DNA of 64,000 nucleotides, taken from NCBI RefSeq assembly GCF_003018115.1, contig NZ_CP027457.1. One strand, written 5' to 3'. Below, piece by piece: positions 30,464 to 41,420 of the stretch. Under the pieces are notes generated by a model that was not told the origin of the DNA, made no database searches, and worked only from the letters and a program-made list of their open reading frames with translations. The position numbers were made by a program, and so were the translations under genes. Within the stretch, counting starts at the first letter, position 1; every line of letters starts with the position of its first letter. This stretch comes from Escherichia coli. Lineage in GTDB: Bacteria > Pseudomonadota > Gammaproteobacteria > Enterobacterales > Enterobacteriaceae.

Positions 30464-30495
30464 AAAAAAACCAACCTTTACGGTTGGTTTTTTTT
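30464..30495. terminator. Bidirectional hairpin terminator (yejO end; probably the original proL terminator displaced by the island)
   Basis: AAAAAAA-CCAACC-tttac-GGTTGG-TTTTTTTT. On the minus strand it directly follows the partial tRNA 3'-end repeat. Confidence 0.7.
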
Positions 30496-30517
30496 GGGAT
30501 TTTTGGTCGCACGAGAG
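30496..30517. repeat. Island-distal att repeat (partial copy of tRNA-Pro 3' end)
   Basis: GGGATTTTTGGTCGCACGAGAG versus GGCGATTTGGTCGGCACGAGAG at 41337-41358. Confidence 0.75.
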
Positions 30518-30578
30518 TAGTTTAATTGAACGTGTAACTTAATGATTTAAAAGAATGAGTCTGATTCAACTTTTAAGC

Positions 30579-30602
30579 CGTATAACCAAACGTATAGCTA
30601 AA
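30579..30602. promoter_or_regulatory. Tandem 12-mers CGTATAACCAAA CGTATAGCTAAA (candidate integrase arm-type sites, distal arm)
   Basis: Same motif and orientation as CGTATAACTAAA CGTATAACTAAA at 41189-41212 next to int. Confidence 0.55.
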
Positions 30603-30772
30603 TTTATTTGCTGAAAAAATGTACAATTTAGAGTCAGATTTTCCCAGATGTTTAATTTATAAAACGAAGCTGGCGGCTGTTCTCTGATATGTGGATCCCC
30701 ATATCTGGAACCCTACCGGAATTTTTTTCCGGTTACCCTTTAATCAGGCTGGTGGGCTTTACCTGTTCGGTA

Positions 30773-30795
30773 GGTATGATCATTATGATCATACC
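30773..30795. repeat. Perfect 23-bp palindrome GGTATGATCAT-T-ATGATCATACC
   Basis: 11-bp arms read directly from the sequence. The nearby hairpin ACCGGAA-ttttt-TTCCGGT lies at 30715-30733. Confidence 0.9.
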
Positions 30796-30848
30796 TTTCG
30801 CCCCAATGGGAGGTAAAAGCGCCAACTGGACGGTTAAACCGTCTTTTT

Positions 30849-30883
30849 GTCACATCGTGTCACTGGTTGTCACTCTCCGTCAC
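30849..30883. repeat. Four GTCAC repeats with exact 10-bp phasing
   Basis: GTCACatcgt GTCACtggtt GTCACtctcc GTCAC, starting at 30849, 30859, 30869 and 30879. Preceded by hairpin GACGGTT-a-AACCGTC plus TTTTT. Confidence 0.9.
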
Positions 30884-30910
30884 GATGTCCGCTCGCCTGG
30901 CTGTAAATCA

Positions 30911-31139
30911 AACTACGAAATTTTCGTAGTTGTGAGTAAGCCCCAAAATATGGGGATTACTCTTACTACCCAAACTACGGGTAGTTTCCGTAGTTTCATA
31001 GTCGAGTTGCAGATCTGCAACTCCCCCACCAGCCAGCGCAATTTTGCGCTTTGCTTTAAGTTCAGCGAGTTACAGCGCCGACTTCCTCAAATTGAGGTTG
31101 CCGGAAATATCAACCAGTTACGAGGCTCAAAATTGAGCC
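30911..31139. repeat. Train of seven short palindromes/hairpins in non-coding DNA
   Basis: 30911-31 AACTACGAAAtTTTCGTAGTT; 30941-55 CCCCAaaataTGGGG; 30972-87 AAACTACggGTAGTTT (plus CGTAGTTT at 30989-96); 31004-23 GAGTTGCAGATCTGCAACTC (perfect 20-mer); 31035-50 AGCGCAAttTTGCGCT; 31085-97 CCTCAAaTTGAGG; 31124-39 GGCTCAAaaTTGAGCC. Confidence 0.9.
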
Positions 31140-31156
31140 GCCTTTAAATCAACACG

Positions 31157-31438
31157 TTACCGCCGTAACCGCTCCGGCTTCTTCCAGTTGTACGTAATTT
31201 TCTCTTTCTCCCTGTACATCTCTACACGGCGATTGTAGGCCAGCATTTCAAGAACGCGGATCCGTATGTCGCGCATATCAACGCCATTAAGTTCTATACC
31301 ATCACGGCGCATCACCTCCACCACTACACGCACATAATTATCTGCGGTCATGCTGTCCGGCTGCGTGGCCTGTTCGTCAACCTGCTGGCTGATTCCGGCG
31401 ACGCGGCGGATTAATCCCAGTATTTCGGCTTCTGTCAT
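31157..31438 (-). CDS. Hypothetical island protein (93 aa)
   Basis: ORF with ATG preceded by a G-rich SD-like stretch. Follows repeat copy 1. No recognisable motif. Confidence 0.5.
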   Translation of the reverse strand: MTEAEILGLIRRVAGISQQVDEQATQPDSMTADNYVRVVVEVMRRDGIELNGVDMRDIRIRVLEMLAYNRRVEMYREKEKITYNWKKPERLRR

Positions 31439-31475
31439 TGTGCCCCCATCGCGCTGGTGAAGAAAACAAGCTCAG

Positions 31476-31690
31476 ATTTTTTGTAAAGAATCTGTCACGC
31501 TAAAAGATGTCGAACAAAAAACAACCTTCTTCATCATCTTTTTTACATCAAAGCAATTAAAAACAATCACTTACGAACATGATGATGATGACGATAAAAT
31601 CAAAAAAATGCGTTTTTTTCCGCGCCGCCCGCCCCGTGTTCAGGCCCACCCCACCAGGAGGACCCGCAAAAAAGGCGGCTGGTGCCGCCT
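31476..31690 (-). repeat. Copy 1 of ~215-bp island repeat (terminator + G-rich cos-like core + A/T tracts)
   Basis: Aligns block by block with 34015-34228. Shared blocks: TTTTTGTAAA, GAACAAAAAACAACC, ATAAAATCAAAAAAATGCG, TTTTTCCGCGCC, CCGCCCCGTG, CAGGCCC..CCCCACCAGGAG and the terminator hairpin. Confidence 0.85.
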
Positions 31691-31695
31691 TGTTG

Positions 31696-33585
31696 TCATA
31701 GTGAATCGGTACCGCCTGATTTGACCATACCGCGATAATCCAGAGCTGCCACACCTGCATCAATACGGACTTTCCAGGCCACGCCGTCAACGATAAAACC
31801 TTCCTGCTGTTCAAGGTAAGGCTCGTCATTGCCATCAAGATAAGCCACCTCGATTGTGTCCGTTCCCTGTGCGGAAAGCATGTACCATTGTTTTTCGCTG
31901 ATATCATCAAGGCGGGGATCGACGATGATATCAAGTAGCTTGTGGTACGGGTTAAAGATCCCGCTGTTTTTATCAGCCCCGAAAGGTGCGGTTGAGTTAA
32001 TCATCTGCAACGCGCGATCTTCCAGTGCTGCCGGAACTAAAAGGAATTTAGGCGCAATATTCAGCACTTCGCCATTTTTGTCCTTCTGTGTGCGCATCAG
32101 GTGACGTGCTGCACTAAGTCCCGGTGTTGTCAGTCCTGCTTCAATCAGGTTGCTGTGTTTTTTGTCAAACAGCGTTATTCCGTCAGAAAGTTTTACGTTG
32201 CCTGTAAGCACCAGATTAACCAGATTTCCCACCGTTCTTGATGCTGCACGGCCCATAGCCATTGGCACCGTTGATAACTGATCAAGGTCATCATTGATTA
32301 TCGCCTGGCGGGTAATGCTGAAAATATTCCCGTAAGTAGCCAGCGCGATGGGTTCACCGCGATCGCTGGTGGTGATGTATTTATATTCTGCCCCTTCCGG
32401 CACTTTGTTTAACGTTGAGAAGCCATTCATACCAACGCGGCGGGCTTCCCGGAAGTTTGAAAGGGAACCTTTTTTCGTCCACTGGCGGAATGTTTCGCCG
32501 CTGTGCTCCCAGCCTGCAAGCACTGATTTTTCAGCGCCACCAGCAAGGATATCGGTAAAATCGCTGCTGCTGTGGGTGAATGCCGCGTTTACTATCTGCG
32601 AGCGTGTGCCGTAGCTGCCCGTGCTTATACCACGATGGGTTAATGATGCCTGTGCCATATCGAAAAGGCTCATCATGGCGTAAGGATTACCGCGTTCGGC
32701 CCGTTCGTGACCAAGACGCGCATTAAGCCCCTGACGCATGGCATCGCCGGTTATATTGCCGTTATCCGTGTACGCGTAGTAAAGATTTGCGGGGGTGGTT
32801 TTGTTTGTTGGCGTTGATTCTTTACCCATAGCGAGTAAAAGGCGTTCGCGTGCATTCTCAACGCTACATTCTGAATCCGCAAGACAACTTATAGCCAGGT
32901 CGTTATATCTTCCGTTGAAGGTGCCAAACAATTCACGGATTCCGTTAAGTCGTTCCTGTTCGCCACTGCCAGTTTTCTGGCTGATCATGCTTTTAATTTT
33001 TTCCGGCATATTTGAAAAATCTCCGATTCGTTTTGATTCAATTCGGGCCATTGCTGTAATCGCGGGTATAACCTCATCTGCGAAGCCGTTAGCCTTACAC
33101 TCATTGCCATCCATCCAGGTTTCCGCCTCCATCATTGAGGTGATCTCCTGTTTGCTCCTGCCCGTTCTTCCGGCATAGGTTTCTGCCATCGTGTCGCCCA
33201 GCTTGTCCATCAGATCAGCAAAGCGGCGAACGTCGCCCGACACTCCGGCAGTAACACCACGGGGGGCATGTATCATCATCATCGCGTTTTCAGGCATAAC
33301 GATGTGATCTCCACACATGGCAATAAACGACGCCATAGAAGCCGCCATGCCTTCAATGTGTACGATTTTTTTTGCCGGATGATTTTTCAGGGCGTTATAG
33401 ATAGCCAGCCCTTCAAAGATGTCGCCACCAGGTGAATGAATGCTCAGATGGATTTCAGACGCATTACCACACGCGTTGATCTCGTCAGTAAGTGCCGATG
33501 CTTTTACACCGTACCCGCCGATCTCGTCATAAATGCGCACATAGACAACATCTGCCATAGCCTTAATGGAAAACCATGTTTTCAT
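31696..33585 (-). CDS. ClpP-family prohead protease fused to phage major capsid protein (629 aa)
   Basis: N-terminus: IHSPGGDIFEGLAIYNAL..GMAASMASFIAMCGD..MMMIHAPRG (ClpP/S14-like Ser and His motifs). The C-terminal ~330 aa resembles HK97-fold/Mu gpT-like capsid proteins (..ALATYGNIFSITRQAIINDDL..WYMLSAQGTDTIEVAYLDG..). Assignment is from memory of the family, not from a search. Confidence 0.75.
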   Translation of the reverse strand: MKTWFSIKAMADVVYVRIYDEIGGYGVKASALTDEINACGNASEIHLSIHSPGGDIFEGLAIYNALKNHPAKKIVHIEGMAASMASFIAMCGDHIVMPENAMMMIHAPRGVTAGVSGDVRRFADLMDKLGDTMAETYAGRTGRSKQEITSMMEAETWMDGNECKANGFADEVIPAITAMARIESKRIGDFSNMPEKIKSMISQKTGSGEQERLNGIRELFGTFNGRYNDLAISCLADSECSVENARERLLLAMGKESTPTNKTTPANLYYAYTDNGNITGDAMRQGLNARLGHERAERGNPYAMMSLFDMAQASLTHRGISTGSYGTRSQIVNAAFTHSSSDFTDILAGGAEKSVLAGWEHSGETFRQWTKKGSLSNFREARRVGMNGFSTLNKVPEGAEYKYITTSDRGEPIALATYGNIFSITRQAIINDDLDQLSTVPMAMGRAASRTVGNLVNLVLTGNVKLSDGITLFDKKHSNLIEAGLTTPGLSAARHLMRTQKDKNGEVLNIAPKFLLVPAALEDRALQMINSTAPFGADKNSGIFNPYHKLLDIIVDPRLDDISEKQWYMLSAQGTDTIEVAYLDGNDEPYLEQQEGFIVDGVAWKVRIDAGVAALDYRGMVKSGGTDSL

Positions 33586-33776
33586 AGCCAGGCTCCTAAC
33601 GTTGCCTGGTACCAGTATTCAACCGCGCTGCGTGTGATTTGTCCTTTCGTGGGCACTGGCATACCCGGGTGATTATCTTTGATGAACTGCTGATAGCGTT
33701 CGATCTTCTCCATAGTTCCGGCGTCTATGTGCACAGTGGCACTTTTATCCGGCTTTCTGGTGTTGTTCTCTGGCAT
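33582..33776 (-). CDS. Small protein (64 aa from second Met), possibly ribbon-helix-helix-like, translationally coupled to the capsid fusion
   Basis: GGAGG lies 7 nt before the ATG at 33776 (MPENNTRK..). The stop overlaps the capsid-fusion start (ATGA). The pattern TVHIDAGTMEKIERY..TKGQITRSAVEYWY suggests a beta-alpha-alpha fold. Confidence 0.55.
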   Translation of the reverse strand: MPENNTRKPDKSATVHIDAGTMEKIERYQQFIKDNHPGMPVPTKGQITRSAVEYWYQATLGAWL

Positions 33777-33970
33777 AAATCCGCCTCCGTTTTGATTAAC
33801 GGGCATCATTATTGATCGATAAAAGTAATAGATAAATCATTTTCTACCTGAAAATCAGATTATGTTTTTTCTGATTATCCTCAGAGAGGCAAAGCCATTG
33901 ACGCATTTTTGCTATTGAAGCAATATTAAGACTCGTCATCCTGGCGATAAAAACTCCTTTGTCGTGTAAA

Positions 33971-34008
33971 AGCGCCTCCGGTAACAGCAATCGGGGGCGC
34001 TTTTTTTT
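33971..34008. terminator. Strong hairpin flanked by A8/T8 in the leader of the capsid operon (bidirectional terminator-like)
   Basis: GCGCCTCCG-11 nt-CGGGGGCGC (9 bp, one G.T) followed by TTTTTTTT on the plus strand. On the minus strand the same stem is followed by TTTTAC. Confidence 0.6.
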
Positions 34009-34014
34009 GCGCCT

Positions 34015-34228
34015 GTTTTTTGTAAATGTTTTCGGGAACGTTCCAGTGATGAACAAAAAACAACCCGATTCGACACTAAAAATTTTTATTCCTCAATATA
34101 TCAATAGCTTATAGTGGTGGTGATGGTGCCATAAAAATCAAAAAATGCGCCTTTTTCCGCGCCCCTCCGCCCCGTGGACAGGCCCCCCCCACCAGGAGTA
34201 CCTACAAAAAAGCCGGATTGCTCCGGCT
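34015..34228 (-). repeat. Copy 2 of ~215-bp island repeat
   Basis: See copy 1. The terminator AGCCGGA-ttgc-TCCGGCT plus a T-run (minus strand) lies immediately after the PerC-like gene. Confidence 0.85.
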
Positions 34229-34234
34229 GTGTGA

Positions 34235-34507
34235 TTAGCTGTCTTGGTAATTACACCATATTTCATCGCTTACACCATCTATACCCATTTCAGCATAAGT
34301 GCGATCTACTGCCTTTCTCAGGTCTCCGAAGTTATCCGGCGGCTCCGGTGGCCTCTGTGCCTTCCTGGAACATTCCAGCCGTCGCATCGTAACCTGATGC
34401 CGTTCCTTGTCTGTCTCCACCAGCTGCATGACTTCACCCCATCGCGCCGCCGCCCTCCGGTAAAATCCTTTCGCCTCGAGTTCCTCCGCTATGCGGTCAT
34501 GTATCAT
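34235..34507 (-). CDS. PerC-family-like transcriptional regulator (90 aa)
   Basis: The N-terminal pattern IAEELEAKGFYRRAAARWGEVM resembles the AE.LE..G..RRAA.RW signature I recall for PerC/Pch proteins. Confidence 0.5.
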   Translation of the reverse strand: MIHDRIAEELEAKGFYRRAAARWGEVMQLVETDKERHQVTMRRLECSRKAQRPPEPPDNFGDLRKAVDRTYAEMGIDGVSDEIWCNYQDS

Positions 34508-34772
34508 CGCCTGACTCTCCGGTTTTTACGTTGATGGTTGTTACCTGTTCCGCTTCGGCAATCTCCCGTTCTGTCAACGTGGCAAAGTTTGCCGCCGCTG
34601 TGGTCATGAATGCGCTTATCAGTTCGGGATGCTCCTTCGCGTATCCTTCCCCCGCGTGGCGGTCTATTACCCTGATTGCCACCTTTAAGGCGTGCTCTGT
34701 CATGTCTAACGCTTTATATTTCGGCTCTGTTCTGTCTCTGCGCATTTTGGTTATCTCCTCACTCATGCTCAC
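34497..34772 (-). CDS. Hypothetical island protein (91 aa, GTG start)
   Basis: ORF overlaps the downstream gene by 11 nt. Part of the tightly packed operon. Confidence 0.5.
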   Translation of the reverse strand: MSMSEEITKMRRDRTEPKYKALDMTEHALKVAIRVIDRHAGEGYAKEHPELISAFMTTAAANFATLTEREIAEAEQVTTINVKTGESGDDT

Positions 34773-34958
34773 TTTTACACCTCACTTTTTAAAGCGTCTC
34801 GCTTCGTCTCACTTGATATTTTTTGATGCTTTATGTGTGTGTTTCATAAGGATTTTTTTACTCCTCACTTTTGAGCATGTATACAGGTGAGAAAGTGAGT
34901 AATCGTGTTAATATTTTGTAAAAACCTCACCATTACTCACTTTTGCTACTCACTTTTT
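34758..34958. repeat. Iteron cluster (CTCACTTTT family) flanking an AT-rich core: candidate island replication origin
   Basis: CTCACT(T) copies at 34758, 34768, 34781, 34808, 34864, 34936 and 34949; CTCACC at 34926; inverted GGTGAG/AAAGTGAG at 34886-34899. The AT-rich stretch is 34815-34862. Lies immediately 3' of the replication ATPase gene. Confidence 0.6.
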
Positions 34959-36366
34959 ACAGTGGTCCTACATCATCACCATCAATGTAAATCACGGCGT
35001 CTTTTTCCAGTTTGGCTAACCATCGCCGCATATTTTTCACGTCATACCCAAGCCGTTTCATGTCATCACGTAACAGCGGGATCGTGCACTTGTCGCCGTT
35101 CTGTGTGCGTGAACGGATGCACCCCCATAGTGCGGTATGGTTTTCCGTCTTGTTGCCTGCCTCCTCGATGCGTTCCAGTTCAACGGGAGGGCGCGGCTTA
35201 TCCACCACCACCAGCGACGTGATTAACTCCCCGTCAGCGTCGGTAAACAGCTCCACCACGCGTAAGTCATATGCGGCTTCTTTGAGTTCCTCCGCGTCCT
35301 TCATTTTGGTGCATGAGATAACCAGCGCTTCGCTTCCTGCGTCCTCCCTGCGTATCCGGTATTCAGCATCCAGTGATGCACGAAATGCACTGGAACCGCG
35401 CGCGCCTTTCGTCTCATCCTTGCCGGAATGGTGAACCACCAGCACCGTGGCCCCTGTGCGTCGTTTCAGTTCGTCACAACCACGGATAAACGCCCCCATA
35501 TCACGGGAATCATTTTCATCATTCCCACCAAAGCAACGCGCCAGCGTATCCAGAATAATCATGCGTACAGGTTTACCCGTTTCCCGCTCCACCTGACGGG
35601 CAGCGATAACCATTTCATCAACATCAAGCGGGACCGCCGGAAAGATGGGACGGTTTACCAGATACAGATTTTTCACCTGCTCACCGTGCACAACCTCCCA
35701 GGCTTTTACACGACGCGGAACGCCGATACCGCCTTCACCAACCACATAGAGAACAGCGCCATGCGCCACCCTGCGGCCTCCCCACTGGCGGCCCGTGGAA
35801 ACGTGACACGCCCACGATCCGGCAAGGAATGATTTATAGGAACCGCTCGCCCCGTATATGCTGCAAAGCGACGATGCCGGAATAATCCCCTTTACCACGT
35901 AATCAAGCTGTGTGTCGTATCCGGTAGATCCAACGCTCATCGGTAGCGTGGTTTTTCGCTGGGGGATTTTTTTCATGACCAGGCTTTCCCCGCGTTCCCA
36001 TGCCTCCCTAAGCCGTGGAAGCTGGTCGCTCCATTCCTCCAGCAATTCGAAATTTTCAGAAAGTAGCCGCGCCTCCTGGACTCCGGCGATCGCCAGTTTC
36101 GTGGCGATGGTTAACAGCTGCGGCTCTTCAATATTTCCGGCGCGTATCACCGTCGCCCTGTATCGCCCATCATCAACAATCTGGAGGTTATCCAGTTTGC
36201 TTAACTGATAACGCCCCAGATAAACGGGAGGGACTGGATCGCCTGCTTTTTTGGCCTGTGCAATGATGTAATGCTCTGCGAATGAGTGAGCATCAATACC
36301 CGCAAAAATAATCGCATCGGTGTATTTATCTTTCGGTAATCGTTTTACGTTCGGTGCCAGTTTCAT
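34957..36366 (-). CDS. Replication ATPase, RepA/AAA_25 (RecA-like helicase) family, 469 aa
   Basis: Walker A GASGSYKS, Walker B RMIILDT and VVHHSGKD motif, typical of RepA-like helicases of plasmids and satellites. N-terminal ~140 aa unassigned. No zinc-finger or Toprim primase motifs seen. Confidence 0.7.
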   Translation of the reverse strand: MKLAPNVKRLPKDKYTDAIIFAGIDAHSFAEHYIIAQAKKAGDPVPPVYLGRYQLSKLDNLQIVDDGRYRATVIRAGNIEEPQLLTIATKLAIAGVQEARLLSENFELLEEWSDQLPRLREAWERGESLVMKKIPQRKTTLPMSVGSTGYDTQLDYVVKGIIPASSLCSIYGASGSYKSFLAGSWACHVSTGRQWGGRRVAHGAVLYVVGEGGIGVPRRVKAWEVVHGEQVKNLYLVNRPIFPAVPLDVDEMVIAARQVERETGKPVRMIILDTLARCFGGNDENDSRDMGAFIRGCDELKRRTGATVLVVHHSGKDETKGARGSSAFRASLDAEYRIRREDAGSEALVISCTKMKDAEELKEAAYDLRVVELFTDADGELITSLVVVDKPRPPVELERIEEAGNKTENHTALWGCIRSRTQNGDKCTIPLLRDDMKRLGYDVKNMRRWLAKLEKDAVIYIDGDDVGPL

Positions 36367-36662
36367 TTTTTACCCCTGAATCCGTTAATCATGGTTTTCA
36401 GCTTCTGGATGTTTGCCCGTGCCCTGGCGTTGCTGGTGGGCACGTTATGCGGCGCGGTCTGTACCAGAGAAAAATCACGCCGGAACTGATAAACAGGCAT
36501 CACGCAATCATATTCGTAACCTTCACGGCGGTAAGTTACGCACCGTCCCGCCACGCCCTTAATCATTACCGTGCCGCCGTACTGGTCGCGGTAAATATCA
36601 CCGCGCGTAAATTTAGGGTGAGTGTTGCCACTGGCAGTTAAGCCAGAATATTTAAGTTTCAT
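36363..36662 (-). CDS. Small protein, DUF4222-like (99 aa)
   Basis: The pattern YRDQYGGTVMIKGVAGRCVTYRREGYEYDCVMP resembles remembered DUF4222 proteins found upstream of satellite replication genes. ATGA overlap with the ATPase gene. Confidence 0.45.
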   Translation of the reverse strand: MKLKYSGLTASGNTHPKFTRGDIYRDQYGGTVMIKGVAGRCVTYRREGYEYDCVMPVYQFRRDFSLVQTAPHNVPTSNARARANIQKLKTMINGFRGKK

Positions 36663-36667
36663 TATTT

Positions 36668-36901
36668 TTATTCTCCGGTGTGCTGTTCGTTATATCTGTC
36701 GTGCAATGTCTCTATTTCCTGCAACTCATTTATTACAGGCTCAAGAAGCGTTATTAATGCCGTGGCAATTCTTGATTTTTGTTTGTCGCGTTCATTGTCG
36801 CCAAGTGTTTCAAGCCATATGCGCAATATTTCCATCATATTTTCACTGTGAGAAAGTGCAAGAAATACGCGATCTGTTGTTTCGTGGTAAATATCACGCA
36901 T
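36668..36901 (-). CDS. Hypothetical small helical protein (77 aa)
   Basis: ORF packed 1 nt after the upstream stop. Confidence 0.5.
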   Translation of the reverse strand: MRDIYHETTDRVFLALSHSENMMEILRIWLETLGDNERDKQKSRIATALITLLEPVINELQEIETLHDRYNEQHTGE

Positions 36902-36902
36902 A

Positions 36903-37124
36903 TTAATTACCGTCCGTTGTTTTTCTTAAAACAGCTTCTGTCACGAAATCGGCATAGTTAGCGGCAATATCAAGAATATTTAGCCCTGTATCTCTGTGCT
37001 CATCAGTGCAAAGAAAGAAAAAAGCCACCCGCATAATTTCAGATATTGACGAAAGCGCATCAGCCGCATCATCAGGAACGCCGGAAAATTCTTGTTTCAG
37101 GGAATAAAAACGATCATCACGCAT
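36903..37124 (-). CDS. Hypothetical small protein (73 aa from MRDDRFY)
   Basis: The ATG at 37124 overlaps the upstream stop (ATGCGTGA) and is preceded by a GGGGGGG SD-like run. Confidence 0.5.
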   Translation of the reverse strand: MRDDRFYSLKQEFSGVPDDAADALSSISEIMRVAFFFLCTDEHRDTGLNILDIAANYADFVTEAVLRKTTDGN

Positions 37125-37356
37125 AACCCCCCCCATTTTCACAATCAGTAATCAGGATGGTTTTAGCCTCATTCAGTGCCATATCAGCACTAAATTGCAT
37201 AACAGCCAGTGAGTGAGGAACGAAAGCCCCGGTATATTCTGTTTCGCTGGTGGCGTGCTTATGTGCCCTGTCCGCGATAACAGAAATATCAATCAGCGCG
37301 TGCATCAGCGTTTTGATGGCTTCGGCGGCTGCGTCCGGTGTGGTTTTATTGTGCAT
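37117..37356 (-). CDS. Hypothetical small protein (79 aa)
   Basis: ORF overlaps the upstream ORF by 11 nt. Confidence 0.5.
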   Translation of the reverse strand: MHNKTTPDAAAEAIKTLMHALIDISVIADRAHKHATSETEYTGAFVPHSLAVMQFSADMALNEAKTILITDCENGGGYA

Positions 37357-37675
37357 AAAGCATCCCCTGAATATTCGTGTTAATCATTCCGGCACGTTTT
37401 GTGATTTCCTGTAATGATTCCCTTGTGGCGACAATTGCTTCATCTGGTAAGTGGTAATTACACACCACGCGACCTTTATCCACATTGACCAGTAGCTGCC
37501 CTGTGAATTTCTCACGAAACTGAATGCGGTTAAGGTCAGTAAGTGACAGATTAATAATGGCGCACCTCCTGACGAATACGGGCGGCAAATACAGCAACAC
37601 AACCGGACGGGCAACGGTTACGCGCTTCGCGTTCCGTCCAGGCGGTGACGTGGATGATTTGAGATTCTCCGGCAC
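37346..37675 (-). CDS. Hypothetical protein, start uncertain (109 aa from GTG 37675; ~71 aa if initiated at ATT 37558 after AGGAGG)
   Basis: Long open frame overlapping the icd-like ORF out of frame. A strong AGGAGG (37570-37565) has no canonical start codon at proper spacing, only ATT. Confidence 0.4.
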   Translation of the reverse strand: MPENLKSSTSPPGRNAKRVTVARPVVLLYLPPVFVRRCAIINLSLTDLNRIQFREKFTGQLLVNVDKGRVVCNYHLPDEAIVATRESLQEITKRAGMINTNIQGMLYAQ

Positions 37676-37748
37676 TCAGGGCCAGAAAACGCCACACAAA
37701 GGCAGTTTGTGTGTGTACAAGGTGTGGTATATGATTTACGGCAACCAT
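37551..37748 (-). CDS. Small protein (65 aa), tentatively Icd-like (host cell division inhibitor family)
   Basis: GAGGAG SD 5 nt before the ATG. First gene of the leftward operon. The pattern FVWRFLALS..IIHVTAWTEREARNR..VFAARIRQEV resembles my recollection of Icd-like proteins of P4-like elements. Unverified. Confidence 0.5.
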   Translation of the reverse strand: MVAVNHIPHLVHTQTAFVWRFLALSAGESQIIHVTAWTEREARNRCPSGCVAVFAARIRQEVRHY

Positions 37749-37812
37749 AACGGCTCCTCGTTTACGTTGTTGGTTAGAAGCCCCGTTACTGCTCCTACAG
37801 TGCGGGGTTTCG
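37742..37812 (+). ncRNA. Candidate small RNA A (cis-antisense to the RBS/start of the icd-like gene)
   Basis: Promoter-like TTGTGT (37707-12) -17 bp- TATGAT (37730-35). Hairpin GCCCCG-17 nt-CGGGG (37780-37807) followed by TTTCGTCGTTTC. A homologous unit lies at 38453-38565. Confidence 0.35.
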
Positions 37813-37837
37813 TCGTTTCAACACCTTGCCTAAATAA

Positions 37838-37891
37838 GGTGTTGAACACCAATTTAAATCGAGGTGTTAAACACGTCAAGTGTTGAACACT
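37838..37891. promoter_or_regulatory. Three palindromic operators (GGTGTTGAACACC family) overlapping divergent promoter-like hexamers
   Basis: 37838-50 GGTGTTgAACACC (perfect); 37863-75 GGTGTTaAACACG; 37879-91 AGTGTTgAACACT (perfect). Minus strand: TTGACG (37879-74) -17- TAAATT (37856-51). Plus strand: TTGAAC (37883-88) -17- CATACT. Confidence 0.6.
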
Positions 37892-37940
37892 TATTTTTTT
37901 TCCTGCATACTGCATTTGTTTTTTATGAGGGGTGCTCAAC

Positions 37941-38120
37941 ATGGCGACAAAAGCAGTAAACGCAAAATCACAAACAGTTGCGGCAAGGGTTCCACATGAA
38001 GTTATGAACAATGTTGAGGCGGTAAAAATGCCCGGCGAAAGTACAGGGCAGTTTGTTACAGCTGCATTAAAGCGGGAAGTTGAATACCGCCAGCGTCGCA
38101 AGGCCAAAGAATCAGAATAA
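37941..38120 (+). CDS. Ribbon-helix-helix DNA-binding protein 1 (59 aa)
   Basis: ATG preceded by GAGGGG. TVAARVPHEVMNNVEAV..STGQFVTAALKREV fits a beta-strand/helix/helix (CopG/Arc/MetJ) layout. Confidence 0.65.
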   Translation: MATKAVNAKSQTVAARVPHEVMNNVEAVKMPGESTGQFVTAALKREVEYRQRRKAKESE

Positions 38121-38177
38121 TCACTATCAGCGCCGTGGTGTGAGGTACTACGGCGCATTGCTTTACAGGGCAGTATC

Positions 38178-38405
38178 ATGACCAACAACACACTATCACC
38201 AATACAAGACACGCAAACGCAAGATGATGAAATCATCCGGCAAAGGCAGTCAGAAGCCTGCGCCAGACTTGAGGAAGAACTAACCAGAACAAAAATACCA
38301 CCACCAGCGCCGCGCTTAGTGCCACCAGAAAAATTTGCCCTTGAAGATTTTGTCGATAAATACCCACGGCGGCTTAAATCCGGCAAAAACCGACCGCCTG
38401 GCTGA
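38178..38405 (+). CDS. Small protein (75 aa), paralog of 38856..39059
   Basis: MTNN.. start. Shares the motif F.L(E/D)(D/E)F(V/L).KY.R with the second copy. Confidence 0.5.
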   Translation: MTNNTLSPIQDTQTQDDEIIRQRQSEACARLEEELTRTKIPPPAPRLVPPEKFALEDFVDKYPRRLKSGKNRPPG

Positions 38406-38487
38406 GTGCACAAAACCGAACTATGAAACGGATTATTCCGTTTCCGGGGCGTTTGTGTGTGTATAAAGAGTAAGCTATGCTCTTTTA

Positions 38488-38565
38488 TAGCCATAATCGT
38501 TACCTCAATTAATGGTTTGGTTAGACGCCCCGTATGTGAGCCACCACTGCGGGGCGTTGTTTTTT
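38488..38565 (+). ncRNA. Candidate small RNA B (homolog of RNA A with a strong intrinsic terminator)
   Basis: TTGTGT (38453-58) -17 bp- TATGCT (38476-81). TTGGTTAGA, then stem ACGCCCCG (38525-32) / CGGGGCGT (38550-57), then TTGTTTTTTG. Confidence 0.4.
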
Positions 38566-38583
38566 GTATAACGGTAAGTACAA

Positions 38584-38624
38584 TGGTAATTACCATGTAA
38601 CTATAGTAATTAAGGGTAATTACC
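38584..38624. promoter_or_regulatory. Palindromic operators GGTAATTACC (x2, plus a degenerate middle copy) at the RHH-2 start
   Basis: TGGTAATTACCA at 38584-95, AGTAATTAAG at 38605-14, GGTAATTACC at 38615-24, abutting the ATG at 38625. Confidence 0.55.
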
Positions 38625-38798
38625 ATGTCAACACCATTGGAAAAGCGATCGCCTCCATACCAAATGCGGCTACCAGAAGAATTCAGAGCACAACTTGAAG
38701 AGGCAGCGAAAGCAGACGGTGACACTTCTTTAGCCACCTGGATCAAGCGAGTACTCCGAAAAGAATTACAGCAACGCGGTATTGAACCCAAAGGATAA
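38625..38798 (+). CDS. Ribbon-helix-helix (Arc-like) DNA-binding protein 2 (57 aa; below the ORF-track cutoff)
   Basis: Manual translation gives MSTPLEKRSPPYQMRLPEEFRAQLEEAAKADGDTSLATWIKRVLRKELQQRGIEPKG. The MRLPEE..L..AA...G.S....I pattern is typical of Arc/MetJ-type repressors. AAGGG SD lies 8 nt upstream. Confidence 0.6.
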   Translation: MSTPLEKRSPPYQMRLPEEFRAQLEEAAKADGDTSLATWIKRVLRKELQQRGIEPKG

Positions 38799-38855
38799 AA
38801 AACATCAGCGCCGTGGCGTGAGGAACTCCGGCGCATTGCTTTACAGGTACACACA

Positions 38856-39059
38856 ATGACCAACAAAGAATCAACCAATACACCATCGCAAAAAACGAAC
38901 AGAGAGCACGAAAATATGGCGTTCGAGCATGAATCAGAAAGATTCGCACCATGCGCTTTTGTCCTTGATGAGTTTCTAAAAAAATATTCACGTTCTGAAC
39001 GGATGAAAATGGCAGCACAATACGGCCCCAACAAGCAAGATAATTGCCCACCAGCCTGA
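38856..39059 (+). CDS. Small protein (67 aa), paralog of 38178..38405
   Basis: MTNK.. start with FVLDEFLKKYSRSERMK motif. Preceded by the conserved 44-nt hairpin block. Confidence 0.5.
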   Translation: MTNKESTNTPSQKTNREHENMAFEHESERFAPCAFVLDEFLKKYSRSERMKMAAQYGPNKQDNCPPA

Positions 39060-39127
39060 TCGCGGTTATCATGCCCGGGCTTATGATTGTTGACACATAC
39101 GGCGCAGCGGGTTAATTGTTCAGAAAG

Positions 39128-39156
39128 GTGGCTCCATTTCGGGGCCGCTTTTTTTA
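39128..39156 (+). terminator. Rho-independent terminator ending the rightward RHH operon
   Basis: GGCTCC-atttc-GGGGCC stem, then GC and TTTTTTT. Confidence 0.6.
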
Positions 39157-39180
39157 TGTTCATCATTTGCCCTATATATG

Positions 39181-39387
39181 TTAAGCGGTCGTTCCGCGCG
39201 CTTCTTGTTCGCGTTCTTTCATCCATGCGATTACGTCTTCCTCATACCATCCGCGACGGCGCAAACCGACACGAAAACCCTGCGGGAATTCTCCGGCGTT
39301 GATCATGCTTTGCAGCGTGCTGTCTGCCTTAATGTGGATAAGTTTTTTTACTTCCTGGCGAAAGATGACTTTTTTGATTGCTTCCAT
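39181..39387 (-). CDS. AlpA-family phage regulatory protein / excisionase-like (68 aa)
   Basis: The pattern ..LIHIKADSTLQSMINAGEFPQGFRVGLRRRGWYEEDVIAWM.. matches the MerR-like wHTH AlpA/Xis family signature (R.v.W...dV..W). Confidence 0.8.
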   Translation of the reverse strand: MEAIKKVIFRQEVKKLIHIKADSTLQSMINAGEFPQGFRVGLRRRGWYEEDVIAWMKEREQEARGTTA

Positions 39388-39406
39388 CGTGATTTACCTC
39401 ATTAAT

Positions 39407-39488
39407 CCGGTGTATTCCGGTGAGAAATACGGTAAATCATCGGATGCAGGGAAAAACAGTACTCACCGTTTTTAAACGGTATACACCG
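39407..39488. promoter_or_regulatory. Nested inverted repeat across the alpA promoter region
   Basis: CCGGTGTAT (39407-15) and CCGGTGAG (39417-24) pair with CTCACCG (39462-68) and ATACACCG (39481-88). Confidence 0.55.
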
Positions 39489-39520
39489 TTTTTTATATTG
39501 ATGATTTGAAAGGGATTTAT

Positions 39521-39546
39521 AAAAAAAGCGGCATTTCTGCCGCTTT
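39521..39546 (-). terminator. Rho-independent terminator after orf83
   Basis: Minus strand: GCGGCA-gaaa-TGCCGC followed by TTTTTTT. Confidence 0.7.
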
Positions 39547-39554
39547 CAGGATTG

Positions 39555-39806
39555 TTACCGCCATTTTTTTGGCCTGCCTCCGGTCTTCATGGATGCCGGA
39601 CGTACAACCTTATCAATACTTACAGCCAGATTTCTGGAAGCCCCACGGGATACCAGGAAATCTACTACCTGTTTTTTTGATGGGGCCGTCGTTCTGTCCT
39701 CCGGATCGTAGGTTGACCAAAATTCATGCTGAACCATCAGGGCCAGTTGCAGCCCGTCGCAATTGCATCTGAAATTTGTTTGCATCTTAACAGTTTCATT
39801 TTTCAA
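39555..39806 (-). CDS. Hypothetical protein (83 aa) downstream of int, basic C-terminus (GGRPKKWR)
   Basis: ORF between int and its terminator. No confident family assignment. Confidence 0.45.
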   Translation of the reverse strand: MKNETVKMQTNFRCNCDGLQLALMVQHEFWSTYDPEDRTTAPSKKQVVDFLVSRGASRNLAVSIDKVVRPASMKTGGRPKKWR

Positions 39807-39883
39807 GGCCTCGTCGTTAAATGTGATGCAATTATACGACGGTTTTAAATGGTTTTCGTAGTTTTTACTGGTTTTCTGTACAG

Positions 39884-41125
39884 CTAAACGGCTCGGATAC
39901 CCCTTTTACCACTGGCGAGGGTTACGCCCGTCGCCGCAGCCTCGACAAATTCGCCCCACCAGCGCATAAGCACGATGCGTTTTTCTATGTAGTTGCTCCG
40001 GTTGTATGCCCGTCTGACTTCGTTGGTGTCGACGTGGGCAAGTGCGGCCTCTATTACGTCCGGCTCAAAGCCTTCTTCGTTCGCTGCTGTGCTGAATATG
40101 GCGCGTAATCCATGAGACACCAGCACGCCAGCGAATCCCATGCGTCGTAATGCTGCGTTAGCGGTCTGGCTGTTCATCGGCTGCTGTGGGTCTTTCAGAC
40201 TCGGGAAAACATAATCGCGGTGGTGGCTGATTGGTTTCATAGCCTCCAGCACTGCCATAGCCTGGTCACAAAGCGGGATAACGTGGTCGCGGCGCATCTT
40301 CATGCGTCCGGCGGGTATGGTCCAGCGTTGCGCTTCCATGTCGATTTCTTCCCAGCGTGCCGACGATGCTTCAACGGGACGGGTTACGGTCAGTAACTGC
40401 CATTCAATCAGTAATCTGGTCTGCCGTTCTGTTGCCGATACTGATAAAGCCTGCATAAGCTCCGGCAGCTGTTCGGGGCGGATTGTTGGCATATGTTTTT
40501 TTACAGGGGAGGGGAACGCCTTACGCACATTCATAGCCGGATTGGCATCAATCATCCCACTATTGGCGGCGTAATCCATTACCTCATTTATACGCTGTAA
40601 AACTCGCTTGAGCGTTTCCAGGTTGCCACGTTCCTTGATGGGGGTAAGCACCTCAACGAACCTGCGAGCGGTCAGGGTGTCTATTGGCGTGTTGCCGATG
40701 AACGGGAATACATATTTTTCCAGCGATCGCCAGATGTCTTTAATCGTATTGGGGGCCAGATTCTGGCTGATTTTCACCTGGTACCATGCTGTTGCCACAT
40801 TTTCGAACGTGTTCCCTTGTCTTCGGGCCTCTGTCTCTCTTTTTTGCCTCTCGTGGTCCTGCGGGTCAGTTCCGGCACGAATTAACGCCCTGTACTCGCT
40901 ACGGCGTTTTCTGGCATCAGCCAGGGAAACATCATCAAGCGATCCAAAACTCAGCAATATTCTTTTTTTGTCCGATGGTCGGTAGTAGGAAAATCTCCAG
41001 AGTTTTGATCCGGACGGTTTGATCAGGAGAAAAAGCCCTCCGCCGTCCTGTAGGGTGTATTCCTTTTCTGCTGGTCTGGCTGCTTTGATCTGTACTGTGG
41101 TTAATGGGGGTGTTTTTCTCGCCAT
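39884..41125 (-). CDS. Tyrosine integrase, P4-type (413 aa)
   Basis: N-terminal DUF4102-like arm-binding region (LTTVQIKAARPAEKEYTLQDGGGLFLLIKPSGSKLWRF). C-terminal catalytic motifs (HGLRAIFST..AHVDTNEVRRAYNRSNY). Adjacent to the tRNA. Confidence 0.92.
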   Translation of the reverse strand: MARKTPPLTTVQIKAARPAEKEYTLQDGGGLFLLIKPSGSKLWRFSYYRPSDKKRILLSFGSLDDVSLADARKRRSEYRALIRAGTDPQDHERQKRETEARRQGNTFENVATAWYQVKISQNLAPNTIKDIWRSLEKYVFPFIGNTPIDTLTARRFVEVLTPIKERGNLETLKRVLQRINEVMDYAANSGMIDANPAMNVRKAFPSPVKKHMPTIRPEQLPELMQALSVSATERQTRLLIEWQLLTVTRPVEASSARWEEIDMEAQRWTIPAGRMKMRRDHVIPLCDQAMAVLEAMKPISHHRDYVFPSLKDPQQPMNSQTANAALRRMGFAGVLVSHGLRAIFSTAANEEGFEPDVIEAALAHVDTNEVRRAYNRSNYIEKRIVLMRWWGEFVEAAATGVTLASGKRGIRAV

Positions 41126-41156
41126 ATGCTTATGATTCCAAACGAAAAAACAGGGT

Positions 41157-41212
41157 TTTAGTTATACGGCTTTAGTTATACGTCAGCCCGTATAACTAAA
41201 CGTATAACTAAA
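41157..41212. promoter_or_regulatory. Four 12-mers (2 direct TTTAGTTATACG + 2 inverted CGTATAACTAAA) upstream of int
   Basis: Copies at 41157-68, 41171-82, 41189-200 and 41201-12. Same motif as 30579-30602 at the other island end. Confidence 0.6.
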
Positions 41213-41215
41213 AAA

Positions 41216-41336
41216 TCCGGCTGATAGCTTATAAATCCGGTGATGTTCGGTGACTAAAAACCATAAAAAAACCCGCCAATCAAGTAATTGGCGGGCTATC
41301 CCTGTCTTATTCGATGATTTCCGGTGGTATCCGGTG
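41216..41336. promoter_or_regulatory. Cluster of TCCGGTG-type motifs between int and the att core
   Basis: TCCGGCTG at 41216, TCCGGTG at 41236, TTCGGTG at 41246, TCCGGTG at 41320 and 41330. The same heptamer occurs twice in the alpA promoter (39406-39424). Confidence 0.5.
41264..41295 (-). terminator. Rho-independent terminator downstream of proL (supplied by island DNA)
   Basis: Minus strand: CCCGCCAAT-loop-ATTGGCGGG followed by TTTTTTT. Confidence 0.7.
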
Positions 41337-41358
41337 GGCGATTTGGTCGGCACGAGAG
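41337..41358. repeat. tRNA-proximal att repeat
   Basis: GGCGATTTGGTCGGCACGAGAG. Pairs with 30496-30517. Confidence 0.75.
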
Positions 41359-41420
41359 GATTTGAACCTCCGACCCCCGACACCCCATGACGGTGCGCTA
41401 CCAGGCTGCGCTACGTGCCG
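41344..41420 (-). tRNA. proL: tRNA-Pro (anticodon GGG)
   Basis: Reverse complement is CGGCACGTAGCGCAGCCTGGTAGCGCACCGTCATGGGGTGTCGGGGGTCGGAGGTTCAAATCCTCTCGTGCCGACCA (77 nt, encoded CCA, T-loop GGTTCAAATCC, U-GGG-G anticodon loop). Confidence 0.93.

Follow-up and report, generated by a model that had tools for sequence, protein, structure and literature searches.

Insertion of the island at proL and its gene content

The window analysed here, a 64-kb stretch of Escherichia coli DNA (64,000 nucleotides), carries an island of 10,841 bp between yejO and proL. Its size was established by alignment with the empty yejO-proL junction of K-12 MG1655, as the window aligns to that chromosome until 30517 and the alignment resumes at approximately 41341. 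The island and its borders contain the following features (coordinates, strand, description).

30464-30494, unstranded: native proL (and yejO) terminator hairpin (terminator scan), moved off the tRNA by the insertion
30498-30517, unstranded: attL core, a degenerate copy of the proL 3' end with one G missing
30531-30602, plus: putative left-arm integrase-binding (arm-type) 12-mers, two to three imperfect CGTATAACTAAA copies
30686-31120, unstranded: conserved non-coding island end region with palindromes and GTCAC repeats
31157-31438, minus: orf93 (phrog_1561), conserved terminal gene of EcCICFT073-type PICIs
31556-31672, minus: cos-like site A, helper type, ~118 nt upstream of orf93
31696-33585, minus: fusion of a ClpP-like prohead protease, a scaffold/linker and an HK97-fold major capsid protein (MCP), 629 aa
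33582-33809 (orf64 form 33582-33776), minus: orf64/75, small ORF (phrog_4934) whose stop overlaps the fusion start
34118-34228, minus: cos-like site B, in direct repeat with site A; the terminator that follows perC (34211-34228) overlaps it
34235-34507, minus: PerC-family regulator (PF06069, 1e-43)
34497-34772, minus: orf91 (phrog_1231), conserved PICI gene
34768-34957, unstranded: candidate replication origin directly 3' of repA, with six CTCACTTT iterons surrounding an AT-rich centre
34957-36366, minus: RepA-family (AAA_25) replicative helicase (PF13481, 1e-43)
36363-37748, minus: six small, translationally coupled early genes (Icd-like, a phrog_340 gene, orf79a, orf79b, orf77, DUF4222)
37551-37748, minus: Icd-like ORF, 65 aa, first gene of the leftward run
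37932-39059, plus: two divergent cassettes, a tandem duplication with a period of ~746 nt
37932-38405, plus: cassette 1, YlcI/YnfO-type ORF and small ORF
38625-39059, plus: cassette 2, Arc-like RHH and small ORF
39181-39387, minus: AlpA-family regulator/excisionase (weak Pfam AlpA/HTH_17 matches; phrog_66)
39555-39806, minus: orf83
39884-41125, minus: P4/CP4-57-type tyrosine integrase (Arm-DNA-bind_3, Phage_int_M and Phage_integrase)
41157-41212, unstranded: right-arm arm-type 12-mers, four perfect copies of CGTATAACTAAA, two per orientation
41270-41297, minus: island-borne replacement proL terminator (terminator scan)
41339-41358, minus: attR core, overlapping the 3' end of tRNA-Pro(GGG) (feature 41339-41420)
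41344-41420, minus: tRNA-Pro(GGG), proL, its 3' end overlapped by the attR core

The end repeat noticed in a preliminary description of this DNA was recovered as GGGATTTTTGGTC-GCACGAGAG at 30496-30517 and GGCGATTTGGTCGGCACGAGAG at 41337-41358, and the tRNA call at 41344-41420 agrees with its reading of the right copy as the 3' end of tRNA-Pro. The core common to both ends, TTTGGTCG(G)CACGAGAG, is the proL 3' end, and the flanking repeat of that end is 17-18 bp long; in K-12 MG1655 the att repeat is present at the yejO-proL junction as the proL 3' end. The hairpin at 30464-30494 adjoins proL directly in K-12, as expected of the displaced tRNA-style terminator that had been proposed. The tandem 12-mers said to occur near both ends were likewise found (CGTATAACTAAA at 41157-41212 and at 30531-30602), and seven of the nine CGTATAACTAAA matches with at most two mismatches in the whole 64 kb fall in the two island arms. 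The same 12-mer strings were published as 'att core' by Fillol-Salom et al. 2018 (PMC6092414) in their Table S1, where PICIs at the proL site, given as 'yejM-luxR', are listed as well. Pieces of the end region at 30686-31120 are 75-95% identical in ~1,540 of 5,426 E. coli genomes, and in all three loci checked these pieces were located at PICI ends; a search of the phage collection gave no match to this region.

The gene inventory of the preliminary description was reproduced with Pfam, PHROGs and NCBIfam profiles, including the P4-type integrase just inside the tRNA end (39884-41125). An icd-like gene is indeed present, but it corresponds to the 65-aa ORF at 37551-37748 and not to the 109-aa ORF of the program-made list. 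The leftward run comprises nine genes, from the Icd-like ORF through DUF4222 and the RepA helicase to PerC, and a homolog of the plus-strand YlcI-type/RHH cassette is found in every catalogued E. coli PICI examined. The N-terminal ~125 aa of the RepA helicase are 45% identical to the EcCICFT073 primase, and PICI origins have been described at the position of the candidate origin, 3' of the replicase gene (PMC6092414). Searches with family profiles (Pfam, PHROGs) gave no match for orf83. For orf93 no homolog was found in the phage collection, its dN/dS was 0.11-0.20, and its AF2 model predicts three helices (pLDDT 66), for which the fold search gave no match. In agreement with the absence of terminase, portal, connector, tail and lysis functions stated earlier, no scanned ORF gave an HMM match to any of them, and nothing credible came back when the whole window was searched by tblastn with the terS, terL, portal and tail proteins of helpers or with the TerS, Rpp and DUF1441 proteins of PICIs. 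No helper prophage lies inside the 64-kb window.

The capsid fusion and the cos-like sites

The fusion matched profile NF045540 with 888 bits, as well as Pfam CLP_protease and Phage_capsid_4, and it keeps the catalytic Ser and His protease motifs. Its closest phage homologs are the fusions of Stx-type and mEp460 phages, to which it is 51-55% identical. The dN/dS of the fusion was ~0.09 at a dS of 0.56, and values across the fusion, orf64 and orf93 ranged from 0.07 to 0.2. In a neighbourhood scan in which each species was represented by a single genome, every fusion with 57% identity or more to that of the island had an orf64 homolog upstream, and none had a portal or terL gene immediately upstream; those at most 52% identical were almost all in phage head modules with the portal upstream, and terL, terS and tail genes were nearby in most. 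These comparisons mark the fusion carried by satellites as an old lineage of their own, kept under purifying selection. Such selection, together with the intact protease, implies that the fusion does something specific.

With all satellite-type fusions checked, which came from six genera, an orf64 homolog lay upstream, and orf64 had no homolog in the phage collection. Its AF2 model (pLDDT 83.5) predicts a strand-helix-helix topology, with the best TM-scores given by RHH domains, below significance. The orf64 product is predicted to be a satellite-specific partner of the fusion, possibly of the ribbon-helix-helix type.

The orf64 and fusion cassette is flanked by the directly repeated sites A and B, which we labelled 'cos' on the basis of their position and resemblance to lambda cosN. 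Site A is 96.8% identical over 94 nt, and 91.5% over 117 nt, to a sequence of the Stx2a phage Stx2_95 located 120 nt upstream of terS, and its spacing to orf93 equals the phage cos-to-terS spacing. In VT1-Sakai, CP-1639 and mEp460, too, the sequence immediately upstream of terS matches site A, and the best matches to the fusion protein came from these same phages, Stx2_95 included. In sequence, both the fusion gene and the cos sites correspond to the module for heads and packaging in Stx-type lambdoid phages. Site A remains near the helper sequence for ~60 nt past the cosN-like core, which suggests that an adaptor protein may be unnecessary. What appears as new here is the placement of two directly repeated cos-like sites around orf64 and the fusion, one of them 97% like the Stx-phage sequence preceding terS.

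Relationship to catalogued satellites

With EcCICFT073, the prototype Gram-negative PICI (PMC6092414; PMC6739421), the island shares its size (~11 kb) and gene order: int, alpA, the divergent YlcI-type cassette, the Icd-like gene, small ORFs, DUF4222, the replicase, a 3' iteron origin, orf91, PerC, a small ORF overlapping the capsid gene, and orf93. Protein identities are 88% for orf77, 91% for DUF4222, 75% for orf79b, 82% for orf91, 78% for PerC and 84% for orf93, and both elements have two cos sites in the late region. EcCICFT073 differs in its integrase and att site (ycfD-phoQ), in having a primase where the island has the RepA helicase, and in its lambda-type capsid module (E-like MCP, D-like decoration protein and orf137) and RppA with a lambda-type cosN, whereas the island has the ClpP::MCP fusion and a Stx/mEp460-type cos, without Rpp.

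The integration end of the island is shared with EcCI11128, EcCIATCC25922 and EcCIED1a.1, which have the same site and arm-type 12-mers. The integrase and orf83 are 99% identical, AlpA and DUF4222 100% and the RepA helicase 78% in EcCI11128; int, orf83 and alpA are 90-95% identical in EcCIATCC25922. Their late cassettes are different, comprising TerS (Terminase_2) and a 307-aa MCP, with orf93 absent, in EcCI11128, and a lambda-type MCP, Dec and a Nu1-like TerS in EcCIATCC25922. The same integrase at the same proL site occurs with three interchangeable late cassettes.

The late cassette itself, a small RHH-like ORF, the ClpP::MCP fusion and orf93 between two cos-like sites, is found in EcCI224 (CP018948.1) and in the cspD-clpS island of E. 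coli 042, which have other integrases and other att sites. In the 042 island, where TerS is also absent, orf75 and the fusion are 99% identical and RepA 98%. In EcCI224, by contrast, the fusion is 62-63% identical, the cos is of the mEp460 subtype, an extra DUF1441 (TerS-like) gene lies between the fusion and orf93, and a primase replaces RepA. Helper-embedded satellites (Tommasini, Mageeney and Williams 2022, bioRxiv 10.1101/2022.07.18.500453) share the four-zone layout (integration, Bro, replication, late), and one of them, in strain SCU-171, carries the same fusion cassette within the terL of a prophage that has a helper-type fusion. The island differs from them in occupying a tRNA gene and not a helper late gene, and in its P4-type rather than HES-clade integrase.

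Likeness to other satellites is more partial. The cfPICIs have their own capsid protein and prohead protease and the same types of int, alpA and replication modules, but add TerS, TerL, portal, head-tail adaptor, connector and HNH genes, all absent from the island. Lone HK97-fold capsid homologs occur in SaPIbov5 (Ccm), a cos-packaged satellite in which the homolog is linked to small capsids, and in PmCI172, where it is associated with small heads; neither homolog is joined to a protease, and the elements, which depend on other helpers, show no sequence relationship to the island. What P4 has in common with the island is a P4-family integrase at the 3' end of a tRNA, along with an AlpA/Vis-like regulator, an Icd-like gene and reliance on a helper cos, but the island lacks sid, psu, delta and the alpha primase, and its cos is not of the P2 type.

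The PICI model of SatelliteFinder has five core components, 'capsid morphogenesis' being one of them (PMC10085698). Of these the island holds four, TerS/Rpp alone being missing. The preliminary description, whose definition of PICIs omitted capsid morphogenesis, held that the island fits none of the described families cleanly; instead, it follows EcCICFT073 collinearly and is, overall, a mosaic of PICIs already catalogued, and its homology to EcCICFT073, EcCI11128 and EcCI224 largely places it within a characterised family. The view of a tRNA-Pro-integrated satellite with a capsid and protease gene, and without terminase, portal or tail genes, was correct, but its novelty did not hold. Since the backbone is that of the catalogued EcCICFT073-type family and the fusion and cos are of Stx type, we consider it very likely (probability about 0.85), from sequence comparison, that the island belongs to the EcCICFT073-type PICIs, a known helper-dependent satellite family of Enterobacteriaceae, and not a new kind of satellite.

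A possible life cycle and the role of the fusion

The empty-site comparison shows that a P4-family integrase has inserted the island into the proL 3' end, and that the island restores the tRNA end and brings a new terminator. By homology to EcCICFT073, a helper phage would switch on AlpA, which would lead to excision and to expression of the leftward operon, and the RepA-type helicase would replicate the circle, with the iterons directly 3' of repA as its origin. The island AlpA is 44% identical to that of EcCICFT073 over 36% of its length, and given this weak similarity the regulatory model is an extrapolation. The helper would be a lambdoid phage with a head and packaging module of the Gifsy-2/mEp460/Stx-phage type, whose TerS-TerL probably cuts and packages island concatemers without an island TerS or Rpp; the presence of two helper-type cos copies, one of them 97% identical and with the phage spacing, suggests that the helper terminase probably suffices. 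The absence of TerS/Rpp and of a helper prophage within the window, the weak AlpA similarity and the non-significant RHH match of orf64 count against the explanation that we favor.

Regarding the fusion, we tentatively propose, at somewhat short of even odds, that together with the RHH-like orf64 it assembles on the helper portal into satellite-encoded procapsids, which would mature by self-cleavage and be joined to helper tails; these procapsids may be smaller than helper heads. In EcCICFT073, helper plaque formation did not return after the capsid gene or the decoration gene was deleted, and the DNA that had been packaged was of phage size (PMC6092414); according to Tommasini et al. (bioRxiv 10.1101/2022.07.18.500453), knockout of a PICI capsid gene is tolerated. 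By analogy, these results argue against an essential role in capsid building. They would fit a PICI whose fusion acts outside particle-making, either as an interference factor poisoning helper head assembly or as a spare copy, with about four tandem island copies packaged in normal helper heads, a doubtful but serious alternative. In support of this idea, the EcCICFT073 capsid and decoration genes are dispensable for interference, four island units (4 x 10,841 bp = 43.4 kb) amount to 94-97% of the genomes of mEp460 (44.5 kb) and Stx2_95 (46.3 kb), and a backup role for captured capsid genes was proposed by Tommasini et al. A spare copy, however, would resemble a recent capture, whereas the fusion is just 51-55% identical to the phage copies, falls in a deep clade made up of satellites only, accompanied by a partner ORF of its own, and is under strong purifying selection with its protease intact. 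The fusion may still act in interference.

It is improbable that the island is a decaying prophage or satellite remnant, immobile through loss of a TerS-like gene. EcCI224 and the ileX island do have the DUF1441 TerS-like gene between the fusion and orf93, which the island lacks, and in these relatives, as in the island, a cos-like site comes after the fusion. However, no damage is seen in either att core, the arm sites, the two cos-like sites, the origin or any ORF; among 5,426 complete genomes, 142-150 have the cassette without DUF1441 at 95% identity or more, and the copies examined occupy several different sites; the dN/dS of its genes is low (0.07-0.2); and site A stays helper-like beyond the cosN-like core, so that an adaptor may not be needed.

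The distinct satellite strategy put forward in the preliminary description, that of an undescribed class, neither PICI, cfPICI nor P4-like, which encodes just a capsid shell with its protease and takes portal, terminase and tails from elsewhere, is very improbable. In its favor, TerS, Rpp, TerL, portal and connector are all absent, the satellite fusions form an old lineage separate from that of the phages, and the searchable library of papers gave no description of the function of the cassette. Against it, each module of the backbone is 75-100% identical to its counterpart in catalogued PICIs, the att site and integrase are those of EcCI11128 and EcCIATCC25922, EcCI224, a listed PICI, already has the fusion, the PICI model counts a capsid gene among its core components, the literature names capsid genes as the most common late gene in Gram-negative PICIs, and PICIs bearing CLP_protease have already been noted.

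Gene content and placement among the PICIs

The island has a unidirectional main operon within its 10,841 bp, and the gene list of the preliminary description was borne out by searches against Pfam, PHROGs and NCBIfam. The features that matter for its classification are the following:

Main features of the island
39884-41125: integrase, at one island end, with a specific att site
39181-39387: AlpA-type regulator adjoining int (weak Pfam AlpA match, E 0.003; phrog_66, 1e-7)
37551-37748: Icd-like gene, 65 aa, ~90% identical to Icd-like proteins annotated by PGAP
34768-34957: six iterons, immediately 3' of the replicase gene (AAA_25 RepA helicase)
33582-33809: 75-aa ORF, of which orf64 is a shorter start
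31696-33585, minus strand: capsid gene of the late region, a ClpP::MCP fusion named by PGAP 'ClpP-like prohead protease/major capsid protein fusion protein'
31157-31438, minus strand: orf93, the terminal gene

No ORF matched terminase, portal, connector, tail or lysis families in HMM scans. Likewise, tblastn of the whole window with helper terS, terL, portal, W-like and tail proteins, or with the PICI proteins RppA, Nu1-like TerS, Terminase_2 TerS and DUF1441, gave nothing credible. Rfam, run on the island with E up to 1, returned the tRNA alone and no C4/IsrK-type immunity RNA, an element reported for some PICIs and helper-embedded satellites (HESs), and PADLOC gave zero defence-system matches among ten island ORFs. 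A 496-aa ORF on the minus strand (37736-39226), antisense to both RHH cassettes, was set aside as probably an artefact, because its composition is odd, with many Cys, Ser and Arg residues, and Pfam gives no match for it. At the same position, relatives carry fragments of BRO-N or Icd-like genes, the 'Bro zone' of Tommasini et al. (Tommasini, Mageeney and Williams 2022, bioRxiv 10.1101/2022.07.18.500453). The YlcI/RHH plus small-ORF cassette (37700-39060) is a tandem duplication with a period of ~746 nt; each copy includes a hairpin that separates the ORF pair and, on the other strand, a promoter-like site (38631-38603; 37879-37851).

In SatelliteFinder, the PICI core comprises an integrase, an AlpA/MerR/Stl regulator, a primase-replicase, a capsid morphogenesis component, noted as frequent in Proteobacteria, and a small terminase; other structural or lysis genes are barred, and an element with four of the five components still counts as Type B (PMC10085698). 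The small terminase is an optional member of the core, terS being present in 'some, but not all' Gram-negative PICIs. The island holds four of the five, the sole one missing being TerS/Rpp. It also fits the size of Gram-negative PICIs (about 8-12 kb, with no other structural or lysis genes) and their layout: integrase at the end, AlpA next to int, replicase with a candidate origin 3' of it, and capsid gene placed late. Judging from the likeness of its cos-like site A (~31556-31672) to the phage Stx2_95, it carries a predicted helper cos as well. The preliminary description had given the PICI definition without its capsid component, and in this it erred; it was right that markers of capsid-forming PICIs (cfPICIs) and P4-like satellites are lacking. 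TerL, portal and head-tail adaptor/connector were absent by HMM scans and by tblastn with helper terL, portal and W-like proteins, and sid, psu, delta, ash/epsilon or the alpha primase-helicase were found in no ORF with Pfam or PHROGs. The replicase of the island is the AAA_25 RepA. HESs are integrated inside a helper late gene; the island instead lies in proL, between yejO and yejM, flanked by chromosomal genes only, and outside the island the window shows nothing but normal chromosomal DNA.

A module-by-module comparison placed the island beside EcCICFT073 (NC_004431.1, 1377749-1389210), the experimentally studied prototype of the Gram-negative PICIs. Both share the order int, alpA, divergent YlcI-type cassette, Icd-like gene, several small ORFs, DUF4222, replicase, orf91 homolog, PerC and a small ORF overlapping the capsid gene; EcCICFT073 ends with further late genes and, last, the orf93 homolog. 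Identity to the EcCICFT073 proteins is 88% for orf77, 91% for DUF4222, 75% for orf79b, 82% for orf91, 78% for PerC and 84% for orf93. The first ~125 residues of RepA (35990-36366) share 45% identity with the start of the EcCICFT073 primase (10242-10620 of its locus, L008), and thus one N-terminal domain, which directly follows DUF4222 in both islands, is mounted on two different replicase engines.

In a megablast search of 5,426 complete E. coli genomes, at least 80% of the island was recovered in 11, together with many mosaic relatives. EcCI11128, also at proL, has int (99%), orf83 (99%), alpA (100%), DUF4222 (100%) and RepA (78%) in common with it; an island of E. coli 042 at cspD-clpS shares RepA (98%), orf75 (99%) and the fusion (99%); and EcCI224, listed in Table S1 of Fillol-Salom et al. 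2018 at frmR-thiM, encodes a 637-aa ClpP::MCP fusion 62-63% identical to that of the island, followed downstream by DUF1441 and then an orf93 homolog. Every module of the island therefore occurs in a catalogued PICI. The integrase at proL was found with three interchangeable late cassettes: a lambda-type MCP with Dec and TerS/Rpp, a Terminase_2 TerS with a 307-aa MCP, and orf64 with the fusion. These comparisons of genes and their order show the island to be a member of the EcCICFT073-type PICI family, a type catalogued since 2018, and by this measure its classification is ordinary. The proposal that it fits no described family cannot be maintained, nor can that of a novel satellite, for which the same gene set in a characterised family had been named beforehand as the refuting outcome. 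The late cassette, for its part, is catalogued but functionally unstudied.

The proL insertion site

ARAGORN detected one tRNA in the 64-kb window, a minus-strand tRNA-Pro(GGG) at 41344-41420. Alignment of both junctions with the empty yejO-proL region of E. coli K-12 MG1655 showed that the window is chromosome up to 30517 and again from ~41341, which gives the insertion length of 10,841 bp. The repeat copies are GGGATTTTTGGTC-GCACGAGAG at 30496-30517 and GGCGATTTGGTCGGCACGAGAG at 41337-41358, and the core common to both junctions and the empty site, TTTGGTCG(G)CACGAGAG, is the 3' end of proL. The K-12 site is intact and empty, and copies of the cassette occupy several att sites, both of them indirect signs of a presumed helper-induced mobility. 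As judged from its junctions, these alignments show an insertion that was site-specific and restored the tRNA end; the att-repeat insertion at tRNA-Pro had been described accurately, its core being present in the empty K-12 site. The K-12 counterpart of the hairpin at 30464-30494 comes directly after proL; this hairpin is therefore the native proL terminator, now displaced, and the island carries a replacement at 41270-41297 on the minus strand.

The 12-mer CGTATAACTAAA occurs in four perfect copies at 41157-41212 and in two or three imperfect ones at 30531-30602, and the copies at the island ends account for seven of the nine matches in 64 kb. They are best read as putative arm-type integrase sites. 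Six PICIs are listed at 'yejM-luxR' or 'yejM-aidA', which is the proL site (Table S1, Fillol-Salom et al. 2018, PMC6092414), and the 'att core' published there for the yejM-luxR PICIs consists of these tandem 12-mers, which the preliminary description had pointed out. By alignment with the empty site, the true crossover core of the proL PICIs is the 17-18 bp of the tRNA 3' end and not the published 12-mers, a small correction that goes beyond the literature searched.

Next to the site, yejO (27811-30402) is an intact 863-aa autotransporter ORF in the window. In K-12, where IS5 interrupts it, and in several related strains, with an internal stop at loci L001, L003 and L004, it is a pseudogene.

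The cos-like bracket and the candidate helpers

A 111-nt direct repeat (31580-31690 and 34118-34228) flanks the cassette formed by orf64 and the fusion. Its first copy reaches 96.8% identity with Stx2_95 across 94 nt (91.5% when 117 nt are aligned), and the Stx2_95 counterpart is a non-coding stretch located after the lysis genes, 120 nt upstream of terS. This is the position of cos in lambdoid phages. The stretch also matches VT1-Sakai, CP-1639 and mEp460. Its conserved core is CACGGGGCGG.G.GGCGCGGAAAAA, a sequence similar to lambda cosN, and the island repeat ends ~118 nt before orf93, the phage cos-to-terS spacing. These likenesses show that the island carries helper-type, putative cos sites. 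Lambda cosN itself (GGGCGGCGACCT) had no match in the island beyond chance; EcCICFT073, in contrast, has two exact copies of it, flanking rppA. The mEp460 subtype of the element is present in an ileX island and in EcCI224, where two copies likewise bracket the fusion cassette. Such a double bracket of the Stx/mEp460 type is not in the literature searched. The cos-like repeats may be junctions at which late cassettes are swapped. The island site continues to follow the helper sequence far past its cosN-like core, and packaging of the island may therefore not need an adaptor of the Rpp type.

Elements of the Stx/mEp460 type also lie upstream of the lambda-type capsid cassette in EcCIIHE3034 and EcCIATCC25922; together with the bracket of EcCI224, these are the elements at L012 (7519-7653), L010 (8305-8493) and L014 (7585-7684 and 10132-10246). 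PICIs may therefore combine cos sites of different helper types.

The cos-proximal position of orf93 raised the idea of a cut-down TerS or Rpp, which found no support: hhalign against helper TerS and RppA showed no relation. Its AF2 model has three helices with a pLDDT of only 66, Foldseek against the PDB gave nothing at E <2, and tblastn found no match in the phage collection.

The best matches of the fusion in the phage collection are full-length protease/scaffold/capsid fusions with 51-55% identity, in the long-tailed Stx-converting phages Stx2_95, VT1-Sakai and CP-1639, in mEp460 and in the cdtI phage. Together with the cos-like sites, this capsid homology points to Stx-type lambdoid phages as the probable helpers. 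Furthermore, in E. coli SCU-171 a satellite with the same orf64-fusion cassette is inserted in a prophage terL (L018, NZ_CP054363.1 314878-334981), the helper-embedded configuration of Tommasini et al. The host prophage is lambdoid, with a helper-type fusion, portal and tail genes, and the two fusions lie 3.6 kb apart, a direct genomic linkage of the cassette to its presumed helper type in one genome. The SCU-171 satellite is disrupted by an IS66 element.

Possible roles of the fusion protein

Between the window and SCU-171 copies, the fusion has a dN/dS of 0.09 at a dS of 0.56; the values are 0.09 for orf64 and 0.11-0.20 for orf93. The ClpP motifs around Ser (GxAASMAS) and His (MMIHxP) are retained, and both satellite fusion lineages lack a Pro/Ala-rich linker of ~30-35 residues present in the phage proteins. 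The position of the missing linker (32900-33000, residues ~205-215) lies between the protease and scaffold regions. Among relatives scanned in one genome per species, six fusions were at least 57% identical to the window protein (two in Kluyvera, the others in Yersinia artesiana, Buttiauxella, Moellerella and Rahnella victoriana); an orf64 homolog lies directly upstream in all six, portal or terL immediately upstream in none, and a primase or RepA alongside in four. Fusions of 52% identity or less have portal directly upstream in almost all cases, with terL, terS and tail genes close by as well in the majority. On this comparative evidence, the fusion is an old lineage under selection that is specific to satellites and has a small partner gene of its own. 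This clade of fusion and orf64 is also beyond the literature searched, in which a PICI bearing a Clp protease or a fused capsid gene is mentioned only in passing, by Tommasini et al.

At 95% identity or more, the cassette was present in 142-150 of the 5,426 complete E. coli genomes (~2.7%), many of them STEC, and orf64 has ~100 homolog clusters across Enterobacterales. No homolog of orf64/75 was detected by tblastn in the phage collection. The AF2 model of orf64 (pLDDT 83.5) begins with an extended segment at the N-terminus and continues with two helices; it has its best TM-scores to the RHH domains of PrpA/ParD, although the Foldseek matches were not significant. Searches against PDB sequence profiles found nothing, and hhalign gave a probability of only 6% for a relation to EcCICFT073 orf68.

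By analogy with the family, AlpA would drive induction and excision, RepA would replicate the island from the candidate iteron origin at 34768-34957, and the helper would supply TerS/TerL for packaging as well as its portal and tails. For the fusion itself, we favour the assembly of satellite-encoded, possibly smaller, procapsids, to which we assign a probability of roughly 45%, because the protein is old, selected and protease-competent and travels with a dedicated partner. A different outcome, possible if somewhat doubtful, is that the fusion is not required and four island copies fill a normal helper head; four units amount to 43.4 kb, that is, 94-97% of the helper genome sizes. The own-procapsid reading can be extended to a scheme in which the fusion and the RHH-like orf64 assemble, on the helper portal, a procapsid for the satellite alone that is probably smaller, and packaging would start at helper-identical cos sites without Rpp or TerS; in this complete form we consider it rather unlikely.

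Were such a procapsid built on the helper portal, the island would stand functionally midway from classical PICIs, which take over complete helper heads, to cfPICIs, which take the tails alone. The target of own-procapsid formation would be Stx-converting and related lambdoid phages, and the output of Stx phage in STEC could drop. Should islands of this kind form heads of their own or disturb Stx-phage assembly, the spread of toxin phages would be affected and the gap between PICIs and cfPICIs would be filled. More modestly, the comparison exposes a common, unstudied late-cassette variant.

The left-end non-coding DNA (30518-31156) was also considered as a cos site and ruled out, being matchless in the phage collection; within it, the region 30686-31120 had no match in Rfam or that collection. 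Pieces of this region are 75-95% identical in ~1,540 of the 5,426 E. coli genomes and, in the three loci checked (L005, L006 and L008), are found at PICI ends, on the downstream side of orf93 homologs. Within the region there are a perfect palindrome of 20 nt, GAGTTGCAGATCTGCAACTC, and a series of GTCAC repeats.
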